Of a stretch of 32,000 nt of DNA, positions 10,973-28,628 are shown in pieces. The stretch lies in assembly GCA_047651235.1 (NCBI GenBank), contig CP178758.1, positions 660,001 through 692,000 of the forward strand, in the 5' to 3' direction. The notes below the pieces were generated by a model that saw nothing but the letters and a program-made list of their open reading frames with translations, made no database searches and was not told the origin of the DNA. The DNA comes from Candidatus Electrothrix yaqonensis (lineage in GTDB: Bacteria > Desulfobacterota > Desulfobulbia > Desulfobulbales > Desulfobulbaceae). The translations under genes were made by a program, and so were the position numbers. Each line of letters begins with the position of its first letter. The first letter of the stretch is position 1.

Positions 10973-11163
10973 TCATTTAATAATGTTAAAAAGCTATATA
11001 GAAAGTAGCATTAGTGGCCTGACGCCTTCTTTTGTACTGATAGAGGCGGGCTGCAGTGCAGTTTTCGGGCAAACAGAATTCATTGATCATAAGTACCGAT
11101 ATTAACTCTATCCATTCATAAATTCATAACAATGGCAATGCTTATTCAGTAAGCAGGTGCTGT

Positions 11164-11298
11164 GCTTTCCGGTCGATGACGGAAAGCTGATAAAGCCACA
11201 ACCGCTGCGAGGCGGTGTCGGAAAGTCGCGGGTCTCCGCAGGGGAGACGGCCGGACTGCCTGCTTTTTATAAATCTATATACCGGGAGGTATGTTATG
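11164..11298 (+). promoter_or_regulatory. Structured 5' leader RNA, copy 1 (riboswitch-like; GEMM-I-like core, class unconfirmed)
   Basis: Three hairpins: 11164-11187; 11201-11216 with GCGA loop; 11232-11248. Conserved single-stranded blocks are shared with 18875-19010, with compensatory changes in the stems. The element ends at the SD and ATG of a short ORF. Confidence 0.6.
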
Positions 11299-11454
11299 CA
11301 ATCCGCCGAAACGGGGTTCACCCGATTCTTTCACTCCTGCCGTAATCATTCTCCTCCTTCCGTCCTGAAGAAAGAGCGTTTCTGCCGGAAGCGTTTACAG
11401 ACGGACGGCTTGGATATTATTCAACGCAACAACATAACGGAGGAAGAGAAGTGA
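11296..11454 (+). CDS. Short leader ORF (52 aa), possibly translationally coupled to the downstream gene
   Basis: GGGAGG SD 6 nt upstream of ATG 11296. Its stop overlaps the GTG start of the next gene (GTGA at 11451-11454). No recognisable domain. Confidence 0.35.
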   Translation: MQSAETGFTRFFHSCRNHSPPSVLKKERFCRKRLQTDGLDIIQRNNITEEEK

Positions 11455-14411
11455 AGACACATTGGTTTAAAACAGTACCGGTGACAGCCGGTCTGCTGCT
11501 GGGCTTCGGCCTGACGGCTGGCCCGGCCTTTAGCGAGGTGCAGTTTACGGACAGCGGGCAGATTCTGGGAAGCAATTATACTTGGGAGGCGGTGCTGGGT
11601 GATCTGGATGGTGACGGCGATCTAGATGCTTATTGTGCGAACGCTGGAACTCAACCCGACAAAGTATGGCTGAACGACGGAACGGGTATCTTCAGCGATA
11701 GTGGGCAGGCTCTTACTGGCAATCTGCACAGTGGTGCTGTAGCACTGGGCGATCTGGACGGTGACGGTGATCTGGATGCCTTTGTAGGTAAATCAAACTA
11801 CCTTACAGTGTTGATGAATGGCGGGACAGGCAGTTTTTCAGACACGGGACAGCGATTGAACAGTTACGGCACTCACGCTGTGGCACTGGGTGATGTGGAC
11901 GGCGACGGTGATCTGGATGCTTTTGCCGGAAGGTGGGGGCAGCCTACTCATGTATGGATGAATGACGGATCAGGCATTTTCACCGACAGCGGCCAGGAGC
12001 TGGGCGATTCGGGATCACTTGATTGTGATATCGAATTGAGGGATTTAGACGGTGACGGCGATTTGGATGCTTTCGCTGCGAATCATGGGACAAGCGGCAA
12101 TCCGGTCTGGCTGAACGACGGTGCCGGAAATTTTTCTCTCCACGCAAAGCTGGGCAACTTAAGCAGTCATAGCATTGCCTTGGGCGACTTGGATGGCGAC
12201 GGTAATCTGGATGCCTTTGTCGGAAATGTATATGATCCGGATCAAATATGGTTGGGAGACGGAGCAGGCAATTTTATCGATAGCGGCCAGAATCTTGGCG
12301 ACACAATGAGCCTTGAGGTTTCCCTGGCAGACCTAGACAGCGACGGCGATCTGGATGCTTATGTGGCGACCGGCAATATCTGGACCCGGCGTAGCGAGAC
12401 CGACAAGATTTGGCTGAACGACGGATCAGGTGTCTTTTCCGACAGCGGACTGCCTTTGGCATATGCGGCCAACAGTTCCATCCCGTTAGGTGATCTGGAT
12501 GGCGACGGTGATTTGGATGCCTTCAGTGCGGCCTATGGGAACAATGTGGCCTACGGGAACAATACGGTTTGGATGAATGAGTCGGATGGAGTTATTGTGT
12601 ATTACCCGCTGGACGGCAATGCGGAAGAAGCAAATAACAACGCATATGACGGGACAATTCACGGTGCCACGCCAACGACGGATCGTTTTGGTCAGACTGA
12701 CGGGGCAATGCACTTTGACGGAGATGACTATATTGTCACACCGTTTAATATGAGTCAGGAATTTTCGCCTTACGCTCCGGTAACCGTTTCTTTCTGGTTC
12801 AAAGTTGATCCGTCAGACGCTGCTCAGCAAAATACTCTCATTTTTGGTGGAGCCCCTGGCGGAGGCCCAGATTTTATGGCGGGGTTAAACAATGGTATTG
12901 TGAGGAGCAGACTGTACGGCGGTGCTCCGTTAGGAGAATCGGATACAACGTATGCCGATGGAGAATGGCACTATGTAGTATTTGGAAATTACGGCAGCGG
13001 AATCTATGATACCTATTTCTATATTGATGGGCAAAGGCAATCGAACACTCCTTCATTATATTATAATGGAAACGATGTCGGCGGTTACAATCGGGAGGAA
13101 CAGCTTACACTAGGATGCAGGGTCTGGAATTTTACGACTCCAAGTAATTTTTTTATCGGTGATATTGATGACTTTAAAATTTTCTATAATCCTTCACAAC
13201 AGGATGCCGACGAAGATGGTGTTGCAGATGACGAGGACAACTGTCCGAACGTAGCCAATGCAGATCAATCTGATGAAGACAATGACGGCATCGGTGATGC
13301 CTGCGATACCTGCGGGCAGGATCCGGAGAATGATGCGGACGGCGACGGCGTTTGCGGGGATGTGGATGTCTGTCCGGGACATAACGATGCTGTGAATGCT
13401 GACGGCGACAGTGCGCCGGACGGCTGCGATGCCTGCCCGAACGACCCGCAGAACGATGCGGACGGCGACGGAATCTGCGGGGATGTGGATACCTGCCCGA
13501 ACGATGCCGACAACGATGCGGATAACGACGGAATCTGCGGAGATATGGATACCTGTCCAAACGATGCTGCTAACGATGCGGACAACGACGGTGTCTGCGG
13601 GGATGTGGATGCCTGCCCGAACGATGCGGACAACGATGCGGACGGTGACGGAACCTGCGGAGATGTGGATACCTGCGCAAATGATCCTGATAACGATGCG
13701 GACGGCGACGGAGTCTGCGGAGATGTGGATATCTGCCCGAACGATGCTGCTAACGATGCGGACAGCGACGGAATCTGCGGAGATGTGGATGCCTGTCCGA
13801 ACGATGCGGATAACGATGCCGACAATGACGGAATCTGCGGAGATGTGGATGTCTGCCTGCTTGGTGATGATAATCTGGACACAGACGGCGACACAGTTGC
13901 CGATGACTGCGATGTATGTCCACTGGATATCGAGAATGATGCAGACGGTGACGGCATTTGTGAATCGGATGACAACTGCCCGACTCTGGCCAACACCAAT
14001 CAGTCGAACGTGGACGGCGACGAGTACGGCGACGCCTGCGAGCCTGACAATGACGATGACGGCGTGATTGATGATAACGACAATTGCCCGCTGGACGTCA
14101 ATGCCGATCAGGCGGACTACGACGGTGACGGTGTCGGCGACGTCTGCGATGCGGACACGGACGGCGACAACGTGATTGATGCGGATGATGTGTGTCTGGA
14201 AACGGCTGTGGGCGCACCGGTACTTGCCAACGGCTGCTCAGTGGATCAGGAATGCGTGTGTGAGGCGAAATGGAAGAACCACGGTGCCTATGTACGATGT
14301 AATGCACATGCCTGTGAGGATCTGGTTGATGCAGGTCTGCTCACCGAAGCGGAGAAGGACGCGATCATGTCCGAGGTCGGAGAATCTGACTGCGGGCATA
14401 AGAAGAAATAA
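11451..14411 (+). CDS. Large secreted protein: FG-GAP/VCBS repeats + LamG (concanavalin-A-like lectin) domain + thrombospondin type-3 Ca-binding repeats
   Basis: GTG start with GGAGGAAG SD and signal peptide (TAGLLLGFGLTAGPAFS). About 8 repeats centred on GDLDGDGDLDA(F/Y) and WLNDG(S/T)G.F. LamG-like block (GAMHFDGDDYIV...VSFWFKV...GEWHYVVF...IGDIDDFKIFY). More than 12 D-x-D-x-DG-x-C/D TSP3-like repeats. Confidence 0.9.
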   Translation: MKTHWFKTVPVTAGLLLGFGLTAGPAFSEVQFTDSGQILGSNYTWEAVLGDLDGDGDLDAYCANAGTQPDKVWLNDGTGIFSDSGQALTGNLHSGAVALGDLDGDGDLDAFVGKSNYLTVLMNGGTGSFSDTGQRLNSYGTHAVALGDVDGDGDLDAFAGRWGQPTHVWMNDGSGIFTDSGQELGDSGSLDCDIELRDLDGDGDLDAFAANHGTSGNPVWLNDGAGNFSLHAKLGNLSSHSIALGDLDGDGNLDAFVGNVYDPDQIWLGDGAGNFIDSGQNLGDTMSLEVSLADLDSDGDLDAYVATGNIWTRRSETDKIWLNDGSGVFSDSGLPLAYAANSSIPLGDLDGDGDLDAFSAAYGNNVAYGNNTVWMNESDGVIVYYPLDGNAEEANNNAYDGTIHGATPTTDRFGQTDGAMHFDGDDYIVTPFNMSQEFSPYAPVTVSFWFKVDPSDAAQQNTLIFGGAPGGGPDFMAGLNNGIVRSRLYGGAPLGESDTTYADGEWHYVVFGNYGSGIYDTYFYIDGQRQSNTPSLYYNGNDVGGYNREEQLTLGCRVWNFTTPSNFFIGDIDDFKIFYNPSQQDADEDGVADDEDNCPNVANADQSDEDNDGIGDACDTCGQDPENDADGDGVCGDVDVCPGHNDAVNADGDSAPDGCDACPNDPQNDADGDGICGDVDTCPNDADNDADNDGICGDMDTCPNDAANDADNDGVCGDVDACPNDADNDADGDGTCGDVDTCANDPDNDADGDGVCGDVDICPNDAANDADSDGICGDVDACPNDADNDADNDGICGDVDVCLLGDDNLDTDGDTVADDCDVCPLDIENDADGDGICESDDNCPTLANTNQSNVDGDEYGDACEPDNDDDGVIDDNDNCPLDVNADQADYDGDGVGDVCDADTDGDNVIDADDVCLETAVGAPVLANGCSVDQECVCEAKWKNHGAYVRCNAHACEDLVDAGLLTEAEKDAIMSEVGESDCGHKKK
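13311..13853 (+). repeat. In-frame 60-bp (20-aa) tandem repeat array encoding CPNDADNDADxDGxCGDVDx
   Basis: One unit at 13311-13370, one degenerate unit, then seven contiguous 60-bp units at 13434-13853. Confidence 0.85.
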
Positions 14412-17397: not shown

Positions 17398-17474
17398 GAC
17401 ATCGGTTCTGAAAAAAGTTACCGTACCCCAAGATAACCTGCAGCTCATTTTGCTCAAGAAATAACAAAAAGGGT

Positions 17475-18477
17475 TAATTCTACTTTGGCACTCACAAAGG
17501 CTGTGGTAATAATTTGCAATTCGGTTGTTTCTCATATGCGAAATCAATCGAAGCTTGCCTCTTTTCATGCCGTTGACGAAGCTGTCTTATAACTTCATCT
17601 TCGTTTACATCTCGACGTGGAAGAATTGACTTGAGTAATGTTGTTATATCAGCGCAACTCAATAACGGGACACCGACTTGATGGTATAATCGTTGCTCGA
17701 CCATAAACAACATGGCCATCATGACCATAGTCATATGATGATGCCAAGCCAGCCATCCCCGAGCCTTAGCCTTAAGACAACGTTCCTTGTCATCCGTCCA
17801 GCTTTTCGGTAAATACAGCCGACAGTCGATCGGCGTTGAAAAGCGACCATATCCCAAAGTTGCAAACACTACTACTTGACAGTTGTCGGTTTTACCAAGC
17901 TGCCCGCACCATTGACGAGAAACCCCAACAGACATTTTACCCTTTTTGGGTATCCCGGATTCATCAATAAAAAGAGCGCTATCTTCCTTTCCTCCAAAAA
18001 TGTTATCCGCATCTTTAGCTACGTGGTTGTTTACAGGACGCCAATCCCAGTTCGATTCGGAAAGAAAATACTGGAGGGGCTCATATTTAACGCCCGGAAC
18101 CTTTTCCTCCATACGTTCCATGTTTTTTTGTCAGACTGGAATAAACCTTTCAAGTATTGGAATGCTTTATCTGACAAACTTACCGTATGTCTCTTAAAAA
18201 AATGATGATATCTTTCGTGAAAAGACGTAAGTTGCCGGGCGATGCCGGTCAACTCAAAGAATTTGTCATGGGGACTTCTTTTTTCGGGGCTGGGAGCGTT
18301 CATAAAAAGAATAAAGTTATAATCAGGGCGATTGACGGGTATTTTTTTGATAGCTGTTATCAGGTGCTATCTTGATCAAAAAGCGATAAAATCTTCCTAA
18401 TGAAAGATACAACTTTATCCGGATATTGCAAGAAGTTTTTACAAATAGATCAAAAGGTTATGGTTGACAAAGTAGAA
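17475..18477 (-). mobile_element. Defective IS701-family-like insertion sequence, copy A
   Basis: 1003 bp shared with 27626-28628 at constant offset 10,151, roughly 97% identity by eye. Imperfect terminal IRs: TAATTCTACTTTG... at the left and ...CAAAGTAGAA at the right. Boundaries +/- 3 bp. AT-richer than the surroundings. Confidence 0.8.
17492..18303 (-). pseudogene. IS701-family (COG5659-type) DDE transposase, frameshifted and internally deleted
   Basis: ORFs 18303->18031 and 18121->17492 join by a -1 shift at an A7 run (T7 at 18123-18129 on the + strand). The junction reads ...AFQYLKGLFQSDKK|NMERMEEKVPGVKYEPLQYFLSESNWDWRPV. LFIDESG (first D) is present. The sequence then passes from YLPKSWTDDKERCLKAKA directly to RGWLAWHHHMTMVMMAMLF, so the central catalytic region seems to be missing. 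Confidence 0.7.
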
Positions 18478-18874
18478 GTAACGGGGGCTTGTTTTAGAAG
18501 CATGTTTTTCAAACAGCTTCTCAGACAGGCTGCCATAAAAATTACGCATCCGCTTTTCTGTTTCGGGAGAATATGCCTGTATCTTCATGACCGAATGAGC
18601 ATAAACGCAACTATGAAATTCTCAATGACCTGTCAGCAAGTTCCGTAGTTATTAAATTTTCATTCCATATCAGCATGGAGCGGGATGATTCCGTAATTTC
18701 TGAGGCCAGAACCTCCATATGCACCCTTTACCAAGGGCACTTCTCCCGCTACCTTTCCATCCCCCTGTTCCGCAGTCTGCACCGCAAAAAACTTGACATT
18801 TTGTGCTCGTTAGAGTTACATGGAAGATACAGGGAGCTACTTCTCATCTTTGCACCAGTTCTCTGATATAATAT

Positions 18875-19010
18875 GCTTTCCGGGTAGAACAGAGCCGGAA
18901 AGCTGATAAAGCCACAGCCGTCGTGAGACGGTGTCGGAAAACCACGGGTCTTCCTGAAGGAGACGGCCGGGTTACCTGCTTTCACTCTTATAATCGGAAG
19001 GTGTGTTATG
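18875..19010 (+). promoter_or_regulatory. Structured 5' leader RNA, copy 2 (riboswitch-like; GEMM-I-like core, class unconfirmed)
   Basis: Hairpins at 18875-18903, 18917-18932 (GUGA loop) and 18948-18964, plus conserved blocks identical or near-identical to copy 1. Ends at the SD (GGAAGG) and ATG 19008. Confidence 0.6.
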
Positions 19011-26905: not shown

Positions 26906-27628
26906 ATGAAAACAACACGAAAAATCATTGAAATTGACGAAGACCTCTGCACCGGCTGCGGAGAATGTATCCCGAACTGTGCTGAAGGTTCCCTACAGAT
27001 TATCGACGGCAAGGCCCGACTGGTAGCGGATAAGCTCTGCGATGGCCTTGGTGCCTGTCTCGGCCACTGCCCGGTCGGGGCGCTGCAGATTATTGAGCGG
27101 GAGGCGGATGAGTTTGATGAAGAGGCAGTGGAACAATTCTTGAAGGAACAGAAAAAAGCGGCAGCAGGCAGCGGGTGTCCTTCTGCGCAGTTCAAAACCC
27201 TGCAGCCGAGTTCCTGCGAAACAGCCAATGAACCGGCTGCTCAATCCGGCAGTGCACTCAGCCATTGGCCGGTGCAGATCCGTTTGATTCCGCCCAATGC
27301 ACCCTTTCTGGAAAATTGCGATCTGCTGATTGCGGCAGACTGTACCGCTGTCGCCTACGGCAGCCTGCACCATGATTTCATCCAGAGCCGGGTTGTGATG
27401 ATGGGCTGCCCGAAATTCGATGACCAGCAGCTCTACGTGGACCGCTTTACCGAGCTGTTCAGAACCGGAAAACTCAATTCGGTGACTATGCTGATTATGG
27501 AGGTGCCCTGCTGTTCAGCCATGCTCCAGATCGTCAGAACCGCCTATGATCGGGCCGGGGCAGGCGTACCGGTACGGCAGGTTGTGGTTTCTACGCAGGG
27601 GCAGATTCTTGATGAGCGGAAGTGGTAA
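26906..27628 (+). CDS. 4Fe-4S dicluster ferredoxin-domain protein; the stop codon lies in the first 3 nt of IS copy B
   Basis: 240 aa with CTGCGECIPNC and CDGLGACLGHCP cluster motifs and a C-terminal domain containing GCPKFDD and MEVPCC. TAA at 27626-27628 is the first triplet of the repeat shared with copy A. Confidence 0.8.
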   Translation: MKTTRKIIEIDEDLCTGCGECIPNCAEGSLQIIDGKARLVADKLCDGLGACLGHCPVGALQIIEREADEFDEEAVEQFLKEQKKAAAGSGCPSAQFKTLQPSSCETANEPAAQSGSALSHWPVQIRLIPPNAPFLENCDLLIAADCTAVAYGSLHHDFIQSRVVMMGCPKFDDQQLYVDRFTELFRTGKLNSVTMLIMEVPCCSAMLQIVRTAYDRAGAGVPVRQVVVSTQGQILDERKW

Positions 27629-28628
27629 TTCTACTTTGGCACTCACAAAGGCTGTGGTAATAATTTGCAATTCGGTTGTTTCTCATATGCGAAATCAATC
27701 GAAGCTTGCCTCTTTTCATGCCGTTGACGAAGCTGTCTTATAACTTCATCTTCGTTTACATCTCGACGTGGAAGAATTGACTTGAGTAATGTTGTTATAT
27801 CAGCGCAACTCAATAACGGGACACCGACTTGATGGTATAATCGTTGCTCGACCATAAACAACATGGCCATCATGACCATAGTCATATGATGATGCCAAGC
27901 CAGCCATCCCCGAGCCTTAGCCTTAAGACAACGTTCCTTGTCATCCGTCCAGCTTTTCGGTAAATACAGCCGAAAATCAATCGGCGTTGAAAAGCGACCA
28001 TATCCCAAAGTTGCAAACACTACTACTTGACAGTTGTCGGTTTTACCAAGCTGCCCGCACCATTGACGAGAAACCCCAACAGACATTTTACCCTTTTTGG
28101 GTATCCCGGATTCATCAATTAAAAGAGCACTGTTTTTCCTCCCTCCTAAAAGTTTATCTGCATCTTTAGCTACTTGGTTGTTTACAGGACGCCAATCCCA
28201 GTTCGATTCGGAAAGAAAATACTGGAGGGGCTCATATTTAACGCCCGGAACCTTTTCCTCCATACGTTCCATGTTTTTTTGTCAGACTGGAATAAACCTT
28301 TCAAGTATTGGAATGCTTTATCTGACAAACTTACTGTATGTCTCTTAAAAAAGAGATGATATCTTTCATGAAATGACGCAAGTTGTGGGGCGATGCCGGT
28401 CAACTCAAAGAATTTGTCATGGGGACTTCTTTTTTCGGGGCTGGGAGCGTTCATAAAAAGAATAAAGTTATAATCAGGGCGATTGACGGGTATTTTTTTG
28501 ATAGCTGTTATCAGGTGCTATCTTGATCAAAAAGCGATAAAATCTTCCTAATGAAAGATACAACTTTATCCGGATATTGCAAGAAGTTTTTACAAATAGA
28601 TCAAAAGGTTATGGTTGACAAAGTAGAA
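27626..28628 (-). mobile_element. Defective IS701-family-like insertion sequence, copy B
   Basis: Same 1003-bp element as 17475-18477, in the same orientation, with the same A7 frameshift site (T7 at 28274-28280) and the same internal deletion. Confidence 0.8.
27643..28454 (-). pseudogene. IS701-family DDE transposase, frameshifted and internally deleted (copy B)
   Basis: ORFs 28454->28182 and 28272->27643 are collinear with copy A. Amino-acid differences are confined to a few short patches (e.g. NNQVAKDADKLLGGRKNSALL vs NNHVAKDADNIFGGKEDSALF). Confidence 0.7.

Follow-up and report, generated by a model that had tools for sequence, protein, structure and literature searches.

Two predicted class-I c-di-GMP riboswitch leaders with a compensated junction variant in Candidatus Electrothrix yaqonensis

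A stretch of 32,000 nucleotides (nt) from the genome of Candidatus Electrothrix yaqonensis (contig CP178758.1, positions 660,001 to 692,000 of the forward strand; hereafter the window) contains two similar RNA leaders, copy 1 and copy 2, each located upstream of a short open reading frame (ORF). Both elements are predicted, on the basis of a covariance model and of covariation among relatives, to be bona fide class-I cyclic di-GMP (c-di-GMP-I, or GEMM-I) riboswitch aptamers. The original prediction, made from the letters of copy 2, had proposed a GEMM-I three-way junction with altered junction nucleotides and had raised the possibility that the altered pocket accepts a different ligand. The answer to the question of a new ligand pocket is most likely no: in this well-known aptamer the substituted positions are variable and compensated, which spares a chase at the bench. 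The element joins a known riboswitch class as a lineage-specific but structurally conservative aptamer, coupled to a reasonably supported platform for turning translation off.

Aptamer identity, fold and ligand pocket

When the whole window was scanned against Rfam 15 at curated thresholds, three matches were obtained: two copies of RF01051 (c-di-GMP-I/GEMM-I) and one tRNA. Copy 2 matched the full model (positions 1 to 87) with 56.7 bits (E = 1e-8) and copy 1 gave a full-length match of 51.1 bits, compared to a gathering score of 35 bits (cmscan). The two copies are ∼77% identical over ∼124 nt, and the likeness runs from the upstream hairpin into the first codons of the ORF. The scores and this extended similarity indicate that the resemblance to GEMM-I is real and not a chance match. 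The parse from which the three-way junction was first proposed, GGAAAGC-UGAUAAAGCCACAGCC-GUC(GUGA)GAC-GGUGUCGGAAAACCACGGGUCUUC(CUGAA)GGAGACGGCCGGGUUACCU-GCUUUC, is present letter for letter at 18897 to 18983, and the proposed junction is borne out by the significant RF01051 score, well over the gathering score, as well as by covariation of the helices, which supports a three-helix junction in 108 aptamers.

In a MAFFT alignment of these 108 aptamers (alignment A2), 87.3% of the cells of the P1/P2/P3 structure were paired, compared to 32 to 48% when the partners were slid, and the observed covariation score was reached by no shuffle. Nearly all cells of P2, in which each pair had compensatory changes, and of P3 were paired (Table 1). 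Pairing of P1 was 61% in the diverse set and ∼78% in the close leader family. A block alignment that was anchored independently of the upstream arm described below (alignment A3) had the P1 pair G14-C93 in 53 of 54 sequences and four core pairs (columns 22 to 25 with 39 to 42) in 49 to 53 of 54, with a systematic U.U mismatch. Thermodynamic folding of 18895 to 18986 alone recovered P1, P2, and P3 at −32.4 kcal/mol, with a z-score of only −1.62. Thus, the folding energy alone is not significant, and the support for the fold comes from the covariance model and the covariation.

The nucleotides of the pocket were compared on the RF01051 model alignment, read in Vc2 numbering. G20, C22, A23, A25, G42, C44, G45, A47 to A49, G83 (18966), and C92 are all canonical, as are the first G and the last A of the tetraloop; the corresponding pocket nucleotides of copy 1 are G at 11195, AAA at 11222 to 11224, and C at 11259. 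G83 was present in 108 of the 108 aptamers and C92 in 105, and neither was fixed by retrieval. G20, C44, G45, G46, and A47 to A49 were also found in 108/108, but these positions, together with the variant nucleotides, were fixed by the patterns with which the relatives were retrieved. In the Vc2 structure A47 stacks between the two guanines of the ligand. In crystal structures, one guanine of the ligand is read at its Hoogsteen edge by G20 and the other is Watson-Crick paired with C92 (PMC6140456, PMC5888326), and G-alpha, the first of these, bonds through its 2'-hydroxyl to the backbone of A47 (PMC6140456, PMC5888326, PMC3764141). G20, C92, A47, and A48 have been named as the key recognition nucleotides (PMC3764141), C44 pairs across to G83, and A25 and G42 form a sheared pair (PMC11705072). 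C44 and G83 are both available for this inter-helix pair in copy 2, judged from sequence alone. With G20, A47, and C92 canonical, c-di-GMP is the expected ligand; it is quite likely to be the ligand of both copies, and a new ligand is unlikely.

The departures from the consensus are a compensated flip of the P2-closing pair from G21-C46 to C21-G46 (model pair 12-37), C in place of A24 (model position 15), U in place of A43 (model position 34), and, in copy 2 only, A in place of G50, facing U. In addition, the tetraloop is GUGA or GCGA where the consensus has GAAA, and eight positions of P3, in the region of the 11-nt receptor, are deleted. The original prediction had held that the two altered junction strands contact the ligand. 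Its four substitutions are real and are conserved in relatives, but the ligand-contacting bases G20, A47, and C92 are unchanged. A published inventory of c-di-GMP-I nucleotides with high conservation includes all of the kept positions but omits 21, 24, 43, and 46 (PMC3764141); therefore, the claim of ligand contact fails at nucleotide resolution.

The combinations found at positions 24 and 43 in the 108 aptamers (columns 21 and 42 of alignment A2) were A-A in 64, C-U in 22, A-G in 11, and C-C in 8. The two positions covary, across several phyla, as purine-purine (A-A, A-G) or pyrimidine-pyrimidine (C-U, C-C) combinations, and no description of a tertiary or non-canonical covariation between them was found in the GEMM-I literature cited here. 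Such covariation is the pattern expected of a structural non-canonical contact, not of a contact with the ligand. The variant junction nucleotides are kept across the ∼75 leaders introduced below, partly by construction, but positions 24 and 43 vary among the 108 aptamers, and the variant positions lie largely within normal GEMM-I variation. The step from an altered pocket to another ligand is not supported, given canonical G20, A47, and C92, a flip that is compensated and widespread, and substitutions at 24 and 43 that are not at conserved GEMM-I positions. In the minimum free energy structure of copy 2 (ViennaRNA), A23-U43, C24-G42, and A25-U41 are paired and C44 and G26 are bulged. On this model, the subtype may have exchanged the 3x3 internal loop of P2 for a helix that still presents the C44 bulge.

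The distal hairpin had been described as short and as having no obvious tetraloop receptor. P3 is short and the 11-nt receptor is absent, but P2 has a GNRA loop (GUGA, GCGA) of the GYGA type and there is a conserved CU:AG step in P3. The CU:AG step was found with 69 of 76 GNGA loops, and CC:GG with 8 of 23 GNAA loops (Fisher p = 0.006, for non-independent sequences). GNGA loops prefer CU:AG helical receptors (Costa and Michel selection rules). The association matches this preference and would account for the "missing" receptor; the CU:AG step in P3 is likely to be a helical receptor for the P2 tetraloop.

A search with G20, the flipped pair, and the beginning of P3 as fixed elements, and with any base allowed at positions 24, 25, 42, and 43, gave at least 119 genome loci in bacterial contigs sampled at one genome per species. 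The matches listed were mostly from Thermodesulfobacteriota (Desulfobulbales, Desulfobacterales, Desulfobaccales, Geobacteraceae), and others were from Methylococcaceae, Campylobacterota, Acidobacteriota, Nitrospirota, and further groups. Loops in the flip group were almost all GYRA, and P3 was short. Among the 125 flip aptamers in the matches listed, A24 A25 with G42 A43 was found in 78 and G43 in 17. C24/U43 was rarer, being limited among the matches listed to both window copies, two Desulfobulbaceae metagenome-assembled genomes (MAGs; loci L003 and L040), and two unrelated MAGs; C24/C43 was found, again among the matches listed, in Candidatus Electronema sp. PJ (L082) and Methylococcaceae. 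Many of the listed flip-type relatives in other taxa had obvious hairpin-plus-U-tract terminators downstream. The structural subtype (C21-G46, GYRA tetraloop, and short P3 with CU:AG) thus appears common in Thermodesulfobacteriota, and for the additional signature of C24 with U or C at position 43 the closest leader relatives appear to be in Desulfobulbaceae and cable-bacterium genomes.

Some loci carry more than one such element. Two flip-type aptamers were found within 8 kb at L053 and L091 (250 to 300 nt apart), L108 (∼1.5 kb), and L094 (∼5 kb). On the minus strand, L205 has a second leader copy (reverse-strand offset 1367) with U22, which would form a U-G wobble with G45, and with the C24/U43 signature kept.

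Leader pairing, proposed mechanism and alternatives

A subtype-specific pattern retrieved 88 metagenomic stretches, ∼75 of which were true leaders; many came from few samples, as judged by sample identifier, and the samples are assumed to be sediment communities. The leader is ∼135 nt long. It begins with an arm, designated a, of sequence GCUUUCYGG ((G/A)CUUUCYGG), followed by a loop of 3 to 30 nt and by a', CCGGAAAG, which continues as the 5' strand of P1 into the aptamer. The 3' strand of P1, CUGCUUUY, is followed after 10 to 20 nt by a Shine-Dalgarno (SD) sequence, CCRGGAGG, and then, 7 to 8 nt later, by AUG. Many members have an additional hairpin, P0, upstream.

Arm a is complementary not only to a' but also to the SD region. 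Among 71 parsed leaders, ungapped pairing between a and SD covered all eight positions in 47, seven of eight in 19, and six of eight in 5. The base at position 6 of a and its SD partner were C:G in 23 of these leaders, U:A in 35, U:G in 11, and mismatched in 2. When the variable Y of a was C, G was opposite in 23 of 25 cases, and when it was U the partner in a' stayed G in 37 of 46; therefore, SD co-varies with a independently of a'. Furthermore, the complementarity between a and SD reaches the UACC flank, with pairing nucleotides that lie in the loop of the a:a' hairpin, a flank that a' does not require. Duplexes of cognate a and SD had a mean energy of −11.1 kcal/mol versus −9.9 kcal/mol for non-cognate duplexes, a difference reached in 0 of 5000 permutations, and the controls against SD gave −5.9 kcal/mol (shuffled a) and −4.4 kcal/mol (P1 3' strand). 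In alignment A3 the a:SD helix was 80% paired and a:a' 91%; pair 7-55 of the a:SD helix was CG in 21, UA in 21, UG in 12, and unpaired in 0, with 21 double changes.

Partition-function folding of 59 leaders was consistent with mutually exclusive pairing of this kind. With P1 forced, the median probability of a:SD was 0.96 and SD was unpaired with a probability of 0.006, whereas with a' forced into the upstream hairpin the medians were 0.013 and 0.21. Copy 2 with P1 forced had p(a:SD) = 0.98 and an SD unpaired probability of 0.00. When the energy of the ligand was left out, the apo ensemble was favoured over the holo ensemble by ∼2.7 kcal/mol, as a thermodynamic switch would need.

In the mechanism proposed here, a would be held in a local hairpin with a' when no ligand is present, P1 would be open, and SD would be largely free for translation. 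Binding of c-di-GMP would close P1, which would capture a' and free a, and the freed arm could then form an outer helix with the SD region, stacked on P1, and turn translation off. In copy 1 the short ORF regulated in this manner would be translationally coupled to an FG-GAP adhesin-like gene. Folding and pairing thus suggest that the leader family probably shuts off the translation of secreted proteins when c-di-GMP is bound. We infer both the direction of regulation and the presence of a within the transcript. A 5' anti-SD that competes with the 5' strand of P1 would be a compact, and comparatively well-supported, platform design.

Other platforms were considered. GCUUUC is partly complementary to GGAAGG, and a free P1 3' strand (CUGCUUUC in copy 2) might mask SD until c-di-GMP pulls it into P1, so that translation is turned on and the a hairpin merely tunes the stability of P1. 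This would agree with the common activation of adhesin and biofilm genes by c-di-GMP, and the exported or adhesin-like genes to which the original prediction had pointed as a cyclic-dinucleotide regulon would fit. However, the P1 3' strand pairs with SD more weakly than shuffled a and far more weakly than a itself, forcing P1 leaves SD almost fully paired with a, and a co-varies with SD and extends its complementarity to a flank that a' does not need, all of which make an ON switch rather unlikely. It is also improbable that the control is transcriptional, through a Rho-dependent or cryptic terminator, with the match of a to SD a side effect of the fit that the purine-rich a' demands from both a and the P1 3' strand. 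Terminators are frequent behind flip-type relatives in other taxa, and a' resembles the SD consensus, so that some complementarity comes free. Yet the plus-strand interval from each window aptamer to the start codon of the first ORF that follows contained no intrinsic terminator, the leader family has SD instead of a U-tract 10 to 20 nt past P1, and the SD partner of position 6 changes with a (U:A in 35) while a' keeps its G.

The ligand of the proposed OFF switch could differ from c-di-GMP if C21-G46, which lies under the G20:G-alpha platform, and the C24/U43 loop retune the pocket toward another cyclic or linear dinucleotide (3'3'-cGAMP, pGpG, or a mixed dinucleotide) or make the RNA bispecific. 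The flipped pair is in direct stacking contact with the layer that recognises the ligand (structure, PMC11705072), the variant nucleotides are conserved across ∼75 leaders, the best-scoring Rfam model is a candidate variant family (c-di-GMP-I-GGC, discussed below), and hidden GEMM-I variants have a precedent in the cGAMP class (PMC7266159). Against this, the three recognition positions are canonical, the compensated flip is widespread across phyla and occurs before typical GEMM-I platforms such as terminators, nucleotide 20, which is G here, is alone sufficient to switch the selectivity of the Geobacter scaffold (PMC6456294), the G47 that defines the candidate variant family is absent, and the family varies at positions 24 and 43 (PMC3764141). 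Thus, altered specificity seems improbable. There is a similarly small chance that the flip, the C24-G42/A23-U43 re-pairing, and the wrap-around 5' anti-SD together mark a functionally distinct GEMM-I subclass, of Desulfobulbaceae or cable-bacterium type, that governs a large regulon of secreted and surface proteins in the sediment bacteria concerned. If so, the subclass might have a shifted selectivity or affinity, for example as a bispecific c-di-GMP/cGAMP or a pGpG-sensitive RNA.

Several points weigh against a c-di-GMP-responsive GEMM-I leader that turns translation off. The SD of the leaders constrained to the apo form is only ∼21% unpaired (median), so that the predicted ON state is not clean. 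A TATAAT at 18867 to 18872 lies 2 nt upstream of a in copy 2, and if it is a −10 box the RNA starts inside a; a sigma-70 two-hexamer promoter scan of the window leaders gave nothing convincing, and no promoter at the TATAAT site. Repression of adhesin-like genes by c-di-GMP is contrary to the commonest direction of regulation. The flip of the pair that adjoins G20 could tune affinity or selectivity, and no binding data for any G20 flip-type RNA were found in the accessible literature, in which a literal search for flip-type strings returned chance matches only. Conservation of the variant nucleotides follows in part from the retrieval patterns, the independent cases being limited to a few additional copies at loci already in the set, and the sequences are phylogenetically related, so that shuffle-based statistics overstate significance. 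With these points taken into account, the combination of GEMM-I aptamers, c-di-GMP as the ligand, and a translational OFF leader is given a probability of about 0.6.

Other features of the leaders were also apparent. Leaders of the same subgroup as copy 2 have similar A/T-rich motifs (CATAAT, AATAAC) at the place of its TATAAT. The P0 hairpin (GGCAAUGCUUA-loop-UAAGCAGGUGC(C)) is located at 11134 to 11160 and in the 48 nt upstream of a in most of the leaders L120 to L207, with apparent compensatory changes on inspection by eye (GGCAAC/GUUGCC, GGGUC/GGCCC, GCUCA/UGAGC); it is preceded by a conserved CATAACAAA motif, and neither copy 2 nor the other members of its subgroup have it. P0 might stabilise the 5' end as a terminal stem, or it might be an element close to the promoter. 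The spacer between SD and AUG reads RUGUUAUG in both copies (11290 to 11298 and 19002 to 19010) and in most related leaders, which places an early AUG 1 to 3 nt past SD, and the frame of this early AUG, AUG-UUA-UGA (Met-Leu-stop), overlaps the real AUG.

Downstream genes and neighbourhood

The genes behind the leaders differ from locus to locus. Related leaders precede many different secreted proteins of 120 to 1800 amino acids (aa) with AAQA-type signal peptides, and when the proteins encoded behind related leaders were searched against the window with tblastn, no matches were obtained, the cargo genes being different. With cargo this diverse and non-homologous, the leader behaves as a regulatory cassette before varied exported proteins. 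It would represent a many-copy, lineage-specific c-di-GMP leader of Desulfobulbaceae-like sediment bacteria, located before diverse genes for secreted proteins; among the matches listed, the named genome closest to it is that of Candidatus Electronema. The leader family opens a direct way into the c-di-GMP regulon of bacteria that are difficult to culture. No genes for c-di-GMP turnover were found in the window, only one for an HD-domain protein, and no paper joining cable bacteria, riboswitches, and c-di-GMP was found in the searchable literature.

The 986-aa protein encoded behind copy 1 has FG-GAP, thrombospondin-type-3 (TSP3), and LamG domains. The first ∼16 codons after copy 1 (MQSAETGFTRFF..., 11296 to 11344) are conserved in L134 (90% nt identity over 228 nt) and L124, with codon differences that are mostly at third positions, and the proteins further downstream are unrelated. 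L124 has this N-terminus fused, in frame, to a protein of 875 aa; in the window, by contrast, it belongs to a separate 52-codon ORF that ends at the GTGA overlap. Behind copy 2, the 54-aa ORF is followed by genes for a 399-aa protein that has no Pfam match and, by sequence, a hydrophobic N-terminus and for a 503-aa TPR and beta-barrel (SlipAM-like) protein. The N-terminus of the 54-aa ORF matches those (...SAAAILFAAPLAAQAVTVDG...) of 443- to 455-aa secreted proteins behind leaders L130, L149, and L201, from which it diverges after about residue 32, with an early stop. It is possible that the 54-aa ORF is a truncated or decayed gene.

Table 1. Positions of the leader elements, pocket nucleotides (Vc2 numbering), and first ORFs in the window
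Feature	Positions	Strand	Basis or remark
Copy 2 aptamer	18901..18979	+	RF01051, 56.7 bits; RF03167, 57.3 bits, under cut-off of 59
Copy 1 aptamer	11185..11263	+	RF01051, 51.1 bits; RF03167, 52.9 bits, under 59
P2 stem with GUGA tetraloop (18923-18926), copy 2	18917..18932	+	Compensatory changes in 6/6 pairs, 98% paired (alignment A2, n = 108)
P3, short continuous helix with CUGAA loop, copy 2	18940..18973	+	95% paired (alignment A2, n = 108); CU:AG step C18950-U18951 : A18961-G18962
P1 5' strand GGAAAGCUG, copy 2	18897..18905	+	Overlaps a' CCGGAAAGC (18895-18903), partner of the upstream arm
P1 3' strand CUGCUUUC, copy 2	18976..18983	+	Sequence, alignment A3, folding
Arm a GCUUUCCGGG, proposed 5' anti-SD, copy 2	18875..18884	+	Complementary to a' and to the SD region
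SD region UCGGAAGGUG, copy 2	18994..19003	+	Duplex with a, 9 bp, -11.9 kcal/mol
Arm a GCUUUCCGG, copy 1	11164..11172	+	Duplex with SD, -15.3 kcal/mol
a' / P1 5' strand CGGAAAGCUG, copy 1	11180..11189	+	Pairing analysis
P1 3' strand CUGCUUUU, copy 1	11260..11267	+	Pairing analysis
SD region UACCGGGAGGUA, partner of a, copy 1	11280..11291	+	p(a:SD) = 1.0 with P1 forced
G20 equivalent (G-alpha recognition), canonical G	18911	+	RF01051 model position 11; 108/108, fixed by retrieval
C21-C22, 5' half of the P2-closing pairs	18912..18913	+	C21-G46 (18937) flipped; C22-G45 (18936); flip in at least 119 genome loci
C24 (consensus A)	18915	+	Co-varies with position 43 (U at 18934)
G42 U43 C44 G45 G46 A47 A48 A49	18933..18940	+	C44 (18935) is the inter-helix partner of G83; A47 is 18938
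C92 equivalent (Watson-Crick partner of G-beta), canonical C	18975	+	C in 105/108 relatives
Copy 1 first ORF, 52 aa	11296..11454	+	Stop overlaps GTG start of the 986-aa gene (11451-14411)
Copy 2 first ORF, 54 aa	19008..19172	+	Signal-peptide-like N-terminus

Two stretches resembling an insertion sequence (IS), at 17469 to 18400 and 27620 to 28551, are 97% identical over 932 nt and each contain a 209-aa DDE_5 transposase fragment; one of them ends ∼470 nt upstream of leader copy 2. An ORF at 1890 to 2519 was noted alongside this IS-like repeat, and within it 1894 to 2397 is 76 to 78% identical to stretches of L179 and L143. The tRNA gene (RF00005, 67.3 bits) is located at 1112 to 1185 on the plus strand and adjoins a truncated Cpn60/GroEL ORF (11 to 949).

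Comparison with named riboswitch families

The Rfam model that scored best for both copies, in E-value mode, was RF03167 (c-di-GMP-I-GGC), with scores under its cut-off in each case (Table 1). This family was reportedly proposed by Weinberg et al. in 2017 (PNAS) as a variant with a possibly altered ligand. The window elements resemble it in the short P3 and in the overall sequence background, which it shares with them as a delta-proteobacterial one, and this is the reason for the high scores. However, the RF03167 consensus is AAAG-GC...GACGC-G-AA (G21-C46, G47), whereas the window has AAAG-CC...GUCGG-A-AA (C21-G46, A47); the G at RF03167 model position 37 faces A in both copies, and all flip-type matches read GNCGG-A-AA. 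Assignment to RF03167 was therefore rejected, both for the scores below 59 and for the absence of the defining G47.

Many of the relatives are nonetheless assigned to RF03167 over RF01051, with 60 to 75 bits versus the cut-off of 59. Loci above 59 bits that have A47 include L050 (2182 to 2255, 75.4 bits, GACGG-A-AA) and 15 more (L069, L023, L037, L113, L005, L110, L001, L087, L014, L012, L082, L094 twice, L124, and L040). Infernal-based annotation will over-call this "variant" family. RF03167 captures many A47, pair-flipped GEMM-I RNAs, and automatic annotations of a variant ligand in Thermodesulfobacteriota therefore need care. The name of c-di-GMP-I-UAU, which we take to stand for U20 together with U92, does not match the window, which reads G20 and C92. 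This too is a named Rfam variant family (PMC12452182).

The GEMM-Ib aptamers of Geobacter (Gs1761, Gm0970) have the same fold as the window elements, on a delta-proteobacterial-type scaffold with a GYRA loop and a short P3, and the closing pair of Gs1761 appears to have the C-G orientation too. In contrast to the A20 that defines the Geobacter class, both window copies have G20, and membership in the 3'3'-cGAMP class was rejected for this reason. The identity of A or G at position 20 sets selectivity for cGAMP versus c-di-GMP (PMC6140456, PMC6456294), and the single change A20G in Gmet_0970 makes the RNA selective for c-di-GMP instead of cGAMP (PMC6456294). Those of Geobacter turn transcription on (PMC6456294), whereas the window element would be a translational OFF switch.

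With Vc2, the prototype of RF01051, the window elements share the P1/P2/P3 junction, the pocket of G20, A47, and C92, the nucleotides A48, A49, C44, and G83, and a GNRA loop on P2. They differ from Vc2 in the C21-G46 flip, in C and U instead of A and A at positions 24 and 43, in GUGA or GCGA instead of GAAA, and in a P3 with 8 nt fewer and no 11-nt receptor. Unlike in Vc2, the proposed anti-SD of the window elements is located 5' of the aptamer.

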